Part shown: in pieces, positions 335 to 20,406 of the stretch
Layout of the letters: every line of letters starts with the position of its first letter
Position numbering within the stretch: position 1 is the first letter of the stretch
Assembly (NCBI GenBank): GCA_964016885.1
Contig: OZ024748.1
Location: 34,100,001 to 34,164,000 of the forward strand
Length of the DNA: 64,000 nt
Reading direction: 5' to 3'
Source: Eledone cirrhosa
Lineage: Eukaryota
The notes under the pieces: generated by a model
Database searches by the model: none
Seen by the model: only the letters and a program-made list of their open reading frames with translations
What the model was told of the DNA's origin: nothing
Made by a program: the position numbers and the translations under genes

Positions 335-770
335 ATATACATACAGGTACATATACATATATGCACGCATCAGTTTAGCGGACGCTTATTATAACGCCGC
401 TTTGTTTGTTTGTAAACAAACTGAACAGCCTGTATTTATGCCATACGGTGTTAAGGCAACCACGTCACCTTTTTGTTCAACACTGACAGGAACGATGTAC
501 TAGTTTCAAGCTTGTTAGCTATCATCAGCACCGTATACCCATCTGCCAGATAGTTGAACGTTCGAAAGTATATACTTTCCTTATGAATATTAACGGCTGA
601 GCAGCCTAATTTGCATATTGAGTGAGTTAAATCGGTCAGGCATACCGAAAACGATAAGTTGAAAAAAATGAAAACGAAATTTCATTTCTCACTCTTAGTA
701 TGGCACTAACTTAAATGTAAGTATGTATGTATACGTACATACATATATGTATACAGACGTACAGTAGCAT
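335..770 (-). mobile_element. Dispersed retrozyme-like repeat, family B, copy 1
   Basis: Homologous to 5224-5660, 5977-6965, 11833-12432 and 20010-20406; contains an octamer (609-616, minus) and an HHR. Confidence 0.8.
492..534 (-). ncRNA. Type I hammerhead ribozyme (family B)
   Basis: Minus strand reads ACGGUG CUGAUGA U-AGCU aaca AGCU-U GAAA CUAG UA CAUCGU. Confidence 0.85.
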
Positions 771-787
771 GCATATATATATATATA

Positions 788-2197
788 TATTGTTATACTT
801 TGGGAGGGTCATGTTGCCAATAAGAAACACACGCACCAGTTGCTTTCACTTCAATTTAATATATATTTATAAATTTATAAATTTACAAATTTCTGGTTGG
901 TTGGTTGGTTCCACAACCAGATAGTTGTTTATATATATAGTCATAGTCCTTTCGTCACACACTCTGTGACCTCTTCAGTGACTGGGGATTCCTTTCTTCG
1001 TTTCTGTGCCTTTCCTTTCTTCTATCCTACGCCATTTTGTTTCTGTGTGTGTGTTGTGTGCTCAGTTTGCGCATCCGCCACATCCGGGTGTCTGTGTGTG
1101 TTTGTGTTCATTTTTCTATTTATATTTTTCTATTTGTTTATTTATTTATTTATTTATTGTTGGTTGGTTGTTTGTTCTGTGTGTGTGTGTGTTTTCATTT
1201 TGTCCTGTGTGTGTTTTCATTTTGTGTGTGTTTTCAATTGTAAGTTGTTTGTTCTATGTGTGTGTGTGTTTTCATTTTGTCCTTAATTGTAAGTTGTGAT
1301 GTTGCTGTTCCACTCATATTTTCTATTTAATTTTGGTTTTAATTCTTTTATGCTTACTGCCTCTGTAATTTGCCTAAACATTGCGTCTTTTATGTGTGTG
1401 GATTCTATTTTTATTTCTATGCTCTCTAATCTACCCCTGTGTTCTATCTTAGCATGTTGGTAGAGCACAGATGATTCTTTATTATCTTGGAGGTCTCGCC
1501 AGTGTTCATTTATTCGTTCCCCTATACTACGAGCTGTCTCACCTATGTACACTATATTTTGGTTTCTACATTGTCCTTCAGTACATCTTATGCTATACAC
1601 TACATTTCTAGTTTTACAGTTAATATGGGGGCTTATTTTACAGGTTATACATTTCTTATCTATACATGAGGGTCTTTGGAACGGGTATGTCCGGCTAATA
1701 AGTGTTTTTACGGAGGTACCAGGTCTTTCTACTATCTTAATATTGAGACTATGTTTATTTAGGGCTCTTCTAAATTTGTAGGCTAGTTCGCCTCTAGGGG
1801 TTGTGTTGATGAACATTACACTCTGGTATTTATTGCTATCATACCATGAGTTTATTCTATTGGCCTTGTTCCTAGTTCTTTCTATTCTATTCCAAAATTT
1901 GCTCCTATACATGGGGCAGGTCCCATTTATGTCATTATTTACCATTTTTTCCCATTTGGTTCTGGCTCCTTTATACACTCTGATTCTATCTCTCTGATTG
2001 TAGCCAGAGAACTGCATACGGTGGATGAAGTGTTGTATGTGTCTCTCTAGTTCTTCGGGGTTGCACATGCGGGACACATTTCTCATCACCCGTACCAAAT
2101 CCGCAATCAGTATGTTGATTTTGGTATGGTCCGAAATGGCCGAGTTTCGGTGGATCAGATGTTTGGAAGTCATGGGTTTGGCATAATGGGAATGGAG
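788..2197 (-). mobile_element. 5'-truncated Penelope-like element, family A (RT thumb, GIY-YIG endonuclease, 3' pLTR)
   Basis: ORF 1283-2218 has a Cys-rich linker and CKTRNVVYSIRC...VYIGET...ERINEH...LN; closely matches 16310-17638. Confidence 0.9.
939..983 (-). ncRNA. Minimal type I hammerhead ribozyme in the family A pLTR
   Basis: AGUCA CUGAAGA g GUCACA gagug UGUGAC GAAA GGAC UA UGACU. Confidence 0.8.
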
Positions 2198-2487
2198 ACA
2201 ACAATAACAACAACACACACATCAACAACAACAATAGCAACATACCCAGATACAACAACAACAGACACGCAGACACAAACAACAATAACAACACACACAA
2301 CAACGATAACACACACACACACGGAGACAACAACAACACACATCAACAACAACACACATCAACAACAACAACACACACGCATTCAATGCCTCTCACCACC
2401 ACCACAATCTTAACAAACACACAGACACAGAAAACAACTAATGACAGTAGCACAGAAATCAGAGAAATAAGAGAAAGTAATAGGATT
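2198..2487 (+). mobile_element. Inverted internal segment of PLE family A (N-terminal low-complexity region)
   Basis: Reverse complement of about 19317-19602. Confidence 0.8.
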
Positions 2488-19300: not shown

Positions 19301-19883
19301 TCTCCCTTCTCCTTTTAATCCTATTACTTTCCCTTATTTCTGTGAATCTGTGCTACTGACATTACTTGTTTTCTGTGTCTGTGTGTTTGTTAAGATTGTG
19401 GTGGTGGTGAGAGGCATTGAATGCGTGTGTGTTGTTGTTGTTGATGTGTGCTGATGTTGATGTGTGTTGTTGTTGTCTCCGTGTGTGTTATCGTTGTTGT
19501 GTGTGTTGTTATTGTTGTTTGTGTCTGCGTGTCTGTTGTTGTTGTTTCTGGGTATGTTGTTATTGTTGTTGTTGTTGATGTGTGTGTTGTTGTTATTGTT
19601 GTTTGTGTCTGTGTCTGTTGTTGTTGGGATATGTGTTGTATATGTGTGTGCGTATATTGTTGCTTTTGTTTTTGATGCTCCAGCGTAGTTTTGTAAATGA
19701 TTTTTCTATTTCTGACAGACAACTAATCATATTTACCTTCATGAATGTCGCAAATTTCGGCGGCAAACATAACACAGACATTTCATCATTATCTATTTTT
19801 GCGTTCCCATATATGTTGGTGTTTTTGTTGTTGAACTCTTCTGATAATGAGGTGTCGGCCATGTTGATACCGACAAAATTGAT
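16310..19883 (-). mobile_element. Near-full-length, frameshifted Penelope-like element, family A; pLTR HHR at 16475-16519
   Basis: Consecutive frames give LCLPPKFA, TDKSG, LYGLRKDHK, SMDVVSLYPSI, EGAAIG, YSRYVDDI and VYIGET. Confidence 0.92.
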
Positions 19884-20009
19884 ATATATATATATGGGGA
19901 TATATATATATATATATATATATATATATATATATATATATATATATATATATATATATATATATATATATATACATATACATATACATATATATAAATA
20001 AATATAATG

Positions 20010-20406
20010 ATCGGTGTGTTTGTAAACAAACATCCCGAATTAAGCCGTAAAGTGTCATAATAAATGTTCGGTGAATCCATACGTACATATATATATGTGT
20101 GTTCATGTATGTATATATATATATATATATATACATACTACTGTACGTCTGTATGCATATATGTATGTACGTATACATACTTATATTTAAGTAACAGCAG
20201 TACTAAGAGTGAGAAATGAAATTTCGTTTCATTTTTTCCGTTTATCGTTTACGGTACCCCCGGCCGATTAACTCACTCGATATGCAAATTAGGCTGCTCA
20301 GCCGTTAATATGCATGAGGAAAGTATATACTTTCAGACGTTCCACCATCTGGCAGGATGGTATACATTGCTGACTATAGCTAATAAGCTTGAAACTAGTA
20401 CAGTGT
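20010..20406 (+). mobile_element. Retrozyme-like family B copy ending at a core-mutated HHR (20364-20406)
   Basis: ACAUUG CUGACUA U-AGCU..AGCU-U GAAA CUAG UA CAGUGU; octamer near 20282. Confidence 0.8.

Follow-up and report, generated by a model that had tools for sequence, protein, structure and literature searches.

Non-LTR retrozymes (retrozymes without long terminal repeats) were defined by Cervera and de la Pena (2020; PMC7229834), whose main text describes those of coral, mussel and axolotl and newt satellite 2 as tandem, non-coding repeats of 150-450 bp with a type I hammerhead ribozyme (HHR), low GC and a highly self-paired predicted circle. As to how animal retrozymes enter genomes, Penelope-like elements (PLEs) have so far been proposed from co-occurrence and from similarity of ends, and a preprint argues in its main text that retrozymes are non-autonomous PLE derivatives moved by PLE machinery (bioRxiv 10.64898/2026.07.22.740005). 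PLE insertions typically consist of an inverted 5'-truncated copy and a one-sided tail of 30-40 bp (PMC8557442, PMC3846280). In vitro, the tail lies between two internal start sites of the reverse transcriptase (RT), AT-rich DNA is cut and extended on both strands, and the PLE protein is predicted to be a dimer (PMC11167929). Insertions of the same kind are made by hammerhead-bearing repeats of Eledone cirrhosa, found in a stretch of 64,000 nucleotides (the window: assembly GCA_964016885.1, contig OZ024748.1, positions 34,100,001 to 34,164,000 of the forward strand) and across the 3.0-Gb assembly. I propose that these non-coding repeats of 420-470 bp are likely to have been copied by a Penelope-like enzyme that primes from both DNA ends at two sites on the RNA.

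The window is AT-rich and rich in (TA)n, with fragments of LINEs (long interspersed nuclear elements) and of three PLEs. A preliminary description of it picked out seven dispersed HHR copies, family B here, as sisters of a 467-bp array, family A here, and its claim that the seven are collinear with the 467-bp unit, motif by motif, is borne out. Arrays are found genome-wide, with units of 422-467 bp in families A to C and a unit GC of about 0.34, and no open reading frame of at least 150 aa occurs in the A array. The repeats are very probably a non-LTR retrozyme. As a repeat family they are ordinary, though very abundant; the new point is the anatomy of their insertions.

Let position 1 of the unit be the first base 3' of the cleavage site, and let ends be given in the sense of the RNA. 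Insertions of family A then end either at position 229/234 or at 302-304, followed by (TA)n. In B and C the ends fall at the homologous sites in the alignment, which are separated by 56-62 nt (56-74 nt across A and B); in a further family, D, they fall at about 133-140 or 165-167, a tail of 26-33 nt. The first, or short, site falls within a small predicted hairpin, in its loop; the second, or long, site is immediately 3' of a GAAAU hairpin. Among one-armed insertions, 43 of 48 end at one fixed site or the other. What the insertions bear is a tail signature specific to Penelope, and its sites are homologous between families only about 60% alike. The 5' ends of the insertions lie scattered around the unit, and arms repeatedly cross the cleavage site, which means that the RNA copied was circular or an uncleaved multimer.

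I have seen 85 two-armed insertions, a minus arm and then a plus arm, head-to-head, a number that is not a frequency, since many of these loci were picked for that pattern. Wherever both ends could be classified, one arm ends at the long site and the other at the short: 53 of 53, with no case of long and long or of short and short. The rule holds for all 34 of the first set, all 11 in D and all 8 of a set fetched after it had been formed (the last scored with a wider long-end window for B2). Selecting loci that have both strands favours neither class of end, and an independent choice at even odds would yield 53 of 53 about once in 10^16. Nothing but unit sequence makes up the two-armed insertions, whose arms run to as many as 8-10 head-to-tail units without a spacer and are joined mostly through short overlaps. 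Within one insertion the arms differ by 0.6%, 0.1% and 1.5% in A, D and B1, and copies at different loci by 3.2%, 1.1% and 3.6%; no sequence is closer to an arm than its partner arm (ties allowed) at 12 of 17 A loci, 11 of 11 D loci and 8 of 11 B1 loci, and the two share private variants. The target is usually (TA)n: both 30-nt flanks exceed 70% AT/TA steps at 25 of 44 two-armed loci, and at most of the others the join holds a shorter (TA)n. Two loci away from (TA)n show target duplications, of 11 and 12 bp; elsewhere (TA)n hides them. In the flanks of L198, L201, L203, L047 and L034 an interrupted (TA)n unit recurs on both sides of the two-armed insertion, with matches of 24-49 nt, which suggests target reiteration or microsatellite growth at insertion.

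The proposed mechanism would run as follows. Tandem copies would be transcribed, and two neighbouring ribozymes, to judge from their anatomy and from the literature, would pair by way of helix III, a palindrome, with cleavage after GUA or GUU. The monomers would probably be ligated to circles, or uncleaved multimers would themselves be the template. A Penelope RT/GIY-YIG protein would cut AT-rich DNA, and each 3' end would prime cDNA on the same RNA, one from the short site and the other from the long, as in the end pattern seen. Joining of the two cDNAs at their far ends, by whatever route, would give the minus arm and then the plus arm that the junctions display. Most copies would then decay neutrally, with new subfamilies arising from source RNAs that keep their fold, as in the covariation pattern described below. 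Mobilisation of retrozymes by machinery of the Penelope type seems to me probable, and the evidence leans, by a modest amount, towards both primings taking place on a single RNA molecule. A bolder idea, which I put forward tentatively and rate somewhat below an even chance, is that Penelope integration always requires two sites on a single RNA, both of them defined by structure, with a dimeric RT/endonuclease making one cDNA at each site and per cut end and both cDNAs rolling around the circle made by the ribozyme. If it is true, the conserved retrozyme fold is the least that the Penelope enzyme needs for recognition, in a form that can be transferred as a module, and the repeats are a fossil record of thousands of two-site reactions. 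The strict pairing of long with short bears on the origin of the inverted and tailed structures of Penelope, and the exact RNA positions and folds make mobilisation testable in the existing in vitro Penelope assay.

The PLEs resident in the window have ends of the same form. PLE-1 is present as a head-to-head inverted end pair at 45601-46217, one arm with a tail of 58-60 nt, and as other copies at about 787-2221(-) and 16309-18896(-); 10 of 10 two-armed PLE-1 loci pair long with short in (TA)n, with the same tail length, the query having selected the long end. PLE-2 at 12574-15110 (minus strand) is young, with a 602-aa RT/GIY-YIG-like frame at 13213-15021, its short end at 12574 and an inverted arm whose tail of about 108 nt ends near 15205. 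Four of four two-armed PLE-2 loci are long with short, again in (TA)n and with a tail of about 108 nt. That length is unusual, and the element is very young: it has at least 40 genome matches, and those listed are 100% identical over 256 bp. An older PLE-2 copy lies at 3560-5102(+). PLE-3 occupies 61560-63846 (plus strand); its HHR-like motif, at 61565, agrees with the ribozyme core of family D in 24 of 27 nt. The tail of PLE-1 (58-60 nt) is close to that of B (56-62 nt), which is only suggestive as a hint to the partner. A protein search with the C-terminal piece of PLE-1 returned six relatives, none of them with a name.

Compared with L1, in which twin priming also produces a 5' inversion by a second priming from the other DNA end, the difference lies in the sites. 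In L1 the second site is variable and the first is the poly(A) tail; both retrozyme sites are fixed, and either one may lie on either side. PLE insertions come closer, sharing the head-to-head inverted arm, the tail at one end, the two 3' end sites, an AT-rich or (TA)n target and, where visible, target duplications of 11-12 bp (as in the PLE accounts cited above). Unlike them, the retrozymes have no RT/GIY-YIG frame, their arms are multimers of one unit, their tails are 56-74 nt in A and B and 26-33 nt in D as against the usual 30-40, and the strict pairing of long with short has been counted here. The preprint agrees with the present work in that retrozymes co-occur with PLEs and in the proposal that PLEs supply what moves them. 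The basis given in its main text is co-distribution and similarity to PLE terminal repeats in vertebrates; here it is the insertion signature, in families of which A and B are unlike the three PLE ends tested. The words 'tail' and 'head-to-head' are absent from the main text of the preprint, as are 'tail', 'inverted' and 'head-to-head' from that of PMC7229834 (supplements lay outside the check in both cases). I found no open-access paper on a twin-end signature in retrozymes, in a search that did not extend to supplements, and a prior description is possible. Nor did the open-access literature yield a report of this hammerhead or retrozyme family in an octopus or other cephalopod.

The homology of A and B outside the HHR, which the preliminary description had assumed, is firm. 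A sequence-only profile, made with the ribozyme left out from 23 B/C segments that were picked out of 57 distinct ones to be diverse, matched each A unit at 45.8 bits (E 9e-14), with the next best match at 8.9 bits, and the local scores of A against B/C lie above 300 of 300 shuffles. Overall identity between A and B is 54-61%. Genome counts are of exact-pattern matches, with reversed-pattern controls for the main cores. The ACUAGU-type core has 40,579 matches against 8 with the reversed control, and so the HHR motif is not a matter of chance. The B/C pattern has 25,939, the exact core of the window's family A has 5,142, and cores with A or C at position 10.1, mostly of subfamily C, number 1,674. 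The core pattern with another helix III loop has 16,251 matches (control 24), and among the first 100 non-ACUNGU matches 96, from 15 loci, are family D, two are single mutants of B and two are unrelated. Set aside, as unrelated beyond the core, were two matches with ACAUGU and four further odd cores. Family D, found outside the window (e.g. at loci on C1), has a unit of 310-311 bp and about 16,000 matches and is very young. Any relationship to A is weak at most (score 32, shuffle maximum 28), and one to B is undetectable by local score against shuffles.

The subfamilies do differ in age, as had been supposed. Measured against a central real copy, the mean divergence of A and B1 is about 2%, that of B2 about 7% and that of C 6-10% (105 distinct segments, some singletons misaligned). 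It is not the case that one family is dispersed and the other tandem: B forms arrays too, short insertions of A exist, and B1 and A are equally young. The period of 435-450 bp first assigned to B survives as 435 bp in one pair within the window, and monomers elsewhere measure 422 (B2), 434 (C) or 467 bp (B1, like A), the spacing of B units being variable, with an internal (TA)n tract. Sequencing runs labelled as two other organisms contain A at about 99% and B/C-like pieces at 80-99%, from related species or mixed samples. A self-closing contig in both runs would be expected equally of tandem DNA and is given no weight.

Was the fold of the RNA under selection, as the preliminary description held? 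Real monomers folded as circles, each against 40 shuffles, give z-scores of -10.7 for A, -9.6 for B1, -10.0 for B2, -3.4 for C (one old copy) and -3.8 for D. The predicted folds of A, B1 and B2 have a common order of helices, and stems I and II are in the minimum free energy fold of A and B. When independently predicted folds are mapped through a plain alignment, A shares 31, 70 and 26 aligned pairs with B1, B2 and C, with 6, 11 and 7 double changes, as against a maximum of 19 shared pairs and 2 double changes in neutral simulations (40 mutants of A at matched identity). Pair 3 of stem I is paired in 143 of 147 B/C ribozymes (G-U 98, U-G 32, A-U 10, C-G 2, G-C 1), and in variant A2 of family A a U-A of stem II has been swapped for A-U. 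Helix III is a palindromic hexamer in both groups, ACUAGU as against ACGCGU in D, covariation of the kind that dimer cleavage would lead one to expect. The claim therefore stands between subfamilies, where double changes exceed the neutral null. It falls among dispersed copies, which are at the level of shuffles: 23 B/C copies contain one double change, and 183 of 500 shuffles are as high. Covariation between subfamilies and none among copies implies that selection acted on the replicating source RNAs, not on the genomic copies. The fold is kept in the source RNAs that found subfamilies, and individual genomic copies decay neutrally. Two other approaches were discarded. RNAalifold on the plain alignment recovered the ribozyme stems and misaligned A upstream of them, and a helix table made by eye, with 11 A-B1 double changes outside the HHR, is illustrative only, hp_b being misregistered.

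The ribozyme is of type I, with a 6-bp stem I bearing a bulged extension, CUGANGA, stem II and GAAA; in A and B the pair A15.1-U16.1 closes the palindromic loop CUAG. The motif predicts cleavage after GUA in B and after GUU in A and C. Activity at GUU is what the NUH rule leads one to expect, and the core, stems I to III and an NUH site are present in A and in six of the seven B copies of the window. GUA is a natural, active cleavage site (PMC1636495), and a palindromic helix III with dimer cleavage is usual for metazoan type I motifs (PMC4209133). Rfam HH9 matches at 37.7-38.9 bits (E about 6e-6). The one-pair helix III with its palindromic tetraloop cap is that of HHR_Amex1 and the U-U at the base of helix II that of HHR_Amex2, and dimer-dependent axolotl ribozymes with the same two weaknesses are described in the main text of PMC7229834. 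Unlike the metazoan retrozymes of that account, the units here are at or above the upper size (422-467 nt), are known from sequence alone and fall into several homologous subfamilies whose whole-unit fold can be traced.

Several results weigh against a retrozyme whose conserved, cleaving RNA is primed twice by a Penelope enzyme. At 37.7 bits the Rfam match falls short of the gathering threshold of 52, and the ribozymes of B and C, whose stem II has U-U or C-A mismatched at its base, may for that reason cleave weakly. Only 1 of 6 A-B1 double changes and 6 of 11 A-B2 double changes lie outside the HHR, and a structure-aware covariance model with four upstream helices scored A at 34.5 bits, as against 45.8 for sequence only. 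As to the insertions, 32 of the 85 two-armed ones, including both in the window, were excluded for a cut or unclassifiable end, and 19 of 25 would also be in keeping with the copying of one arm from the other. In vitro, the start site of a lizard PLE is strand-independent and ribozyme cleavage is not needed (PMC11167929). Finally, the ends of A and B have no sequence link to those of PLE-1, PLE-2 and PLE-3 beyond (TA)n, and the partner element is therefore left unnamed.

The nearest competitor accepts a retrozyme with Penelope-type insertion and derives the inverted arm from fold-back or template switching on the first cDNA. Copying would also explain the private variants common to both arms; one arm lies within the other in the 19 insertions just mentioned, the window's A array has an inverted duplicate of flank at its 5' join, and self-priming has been proposed for PLE inversions (PMC3846280). 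It is too much to ask of copying alone, however, that the second arm should stop at the other fixed site in 53 cases out of 53, and in 6 of the 25 insertions neither arm is contained in the other, each having sequence that the other cannot supply. I regard fold-back as unlikely. Far less can be said for satellite DNA amplified at the DNA level, by unequal exchange or rolling-circle DNA, with the ribozyme as a passenger. Tandem arrays are indeed near-identical, and individual copies show no covariation. The polarity of the ends, fixed and strand-specific at 3' and scattered at 5', largely refutes it; among the first 100 A matches, counted from the listing, 10 neighbours within 1 kb are minus-then-plus and none plus-then-minus; and fold and palindrome are conserved between families that occupy thousands of dispersed loci. 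I give this idea almost no credence.

The repeats might instead be no separate ribozyme parasite at all, the units being pseudo-long terminal repeats (pLTRs) of an autonomous PLE and the copies its 5'-truncated stubs. PLE stubs have the same inverted-plus-tail anatomy, the D ribozyme core has the resemblance to that of PLE-3 noted above, and vertebrate retrozymes often resemble pLTRs, according to the main text of the preprint. Against this, A and B units have no match to the pLTRs of PLE-1, -2 or -3, two-armed insertions contain nothing but spacer-free units, and a sample of 36 one-armed insertions has no RT/GIY-YIG frame in the 400 bp upstream (tblastn with the three window PLE proteins), all of which makes stubs highly improbable. 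A different doubt concerns the conserved TATGCAAAT, which might be the octamer enhancer of a small nuclear RNA (snRNA)-type promoter, kept as DNA and not as an RNA stem. Newt satellite 2 carries such an octamer together with a proximal element, and exact ATGCAAAT is found in A and in most B copies. Yet there is no exact match within 600 bp upstream of five U2 snRNA loci of this genome, the conserved block upstream of U2 matches the units at just 13-15 of 24 nt, and the motif, which D lacks, forms the 5' arm of a predicted hairpin. An enhancer here is distinctly unlikely. The U2 genes themselves form tandem arrays at C3 307.35-307.45 Mb (period about 2.2 kb on C3), C3 321.6 Mb and C13 36.17-36.18 Mb.

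The seven HHRs of family B lie where they had been placed. A B1 copy of about one unit (339-772, minus strand; HHR 492-534(-), with cleavage predicted after 498) has a (TA)n tract at its end. A B1 insertion of about 1.3 units at 5103-5765 (plus strand; HHR 5464-5505(+)) has its 3' end at the short site, about 5761, and lacks U10.1; it is also, with ACUGGU, the exception to a palindrome rightly said to be kept in six of seven copies. The tail of the older PLE-2 copy (5003-5103), 9 nt short of the long end, abuts the 5' end of this insertion in the same orientation. A chimera by template switching at 5102/5103 was rejected as unproven: the PLE-2 copy (85%) is older than the B1 (about 97%), and insertion of B1 into the PLE-2 flank explains the join. 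Next comes a head-to-head B2 insertion, with a left arm at 5783-6649 (minus strand; HHRs 6119-6161(-) and 6554-6596(-); 3' end at the long site, 5783) and a right arm at 6655-6967 (plus strand; HHR 6779-6821(+)) that runs into (TA)n at 6944-7296 and has an unclassifiable 3' end. A B3-type copy with stem I ACGAUG (11839-12430, minus strand; HHR 12063-12105(-)) ends at the short site. A degenerate two-armed B2 copy (19962-20426, plus strand; HHR 20364-20406(+)) includes a short minus piece at 19962-20056 and ends abruptly just past the ribozyme. The A array (50675-54497, plus strand) has 8.2 units of 467 bp, 0-1 base apart, with eight further HHRs, the first at 50889-50931; its 3' end is at unit position 303, the long site, and (TA)n follows. 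In all, two copies in the window end at the short site and two arms at the long, the others being unclassifiable. At the 5' join of the A array (50607-50672) the flank is duplicated in inverted form around (AT)10, as if the second DNA end had folded back and had not primed on RNA.

Stem I was said to stay paired in all these copies, which is fully so in six of seven; the 12063-12105 copy is damaged in both stems, stem I by a C-U mismatch and stem II by an A-C mismatch. ACAUUG/CAGUGU, offered as a compensatory change, is nothing of the kind: it belongs to the 20364-20406 copy, whose two changes are CpG-type transitions and which, with core G8 changed to U, is catalytically dead. The stems II of the two families differ as reported, their composition needing correction to 4 bp on a U-U mismatch in B and 5 bp (GUUGU/ACAAC) in A.

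Retrozymes and PLEs have accumulated within one another's (TA)n flanks (window 335-20426; L154, L175, L180), producing tail-to-tail neighbours of different families, as at 5765/5783. More CUGANGA...GAAA motifs are found at 978(-), 3189, 8415, 9835, 10756, 16514(-), 44736, 45868(-), 46021, 54943 and 61565, several of them within PLE terminal repeats. LINE fragments lie at 26977-38709 and 59945-60869. Other tandem repeats of the window are at 44841-45343 (188/127 bp, like short interspersed elements), 48092-49607 (173/82 bp, GC-rich) and 22921-23063 (69 bp, in an open frame).

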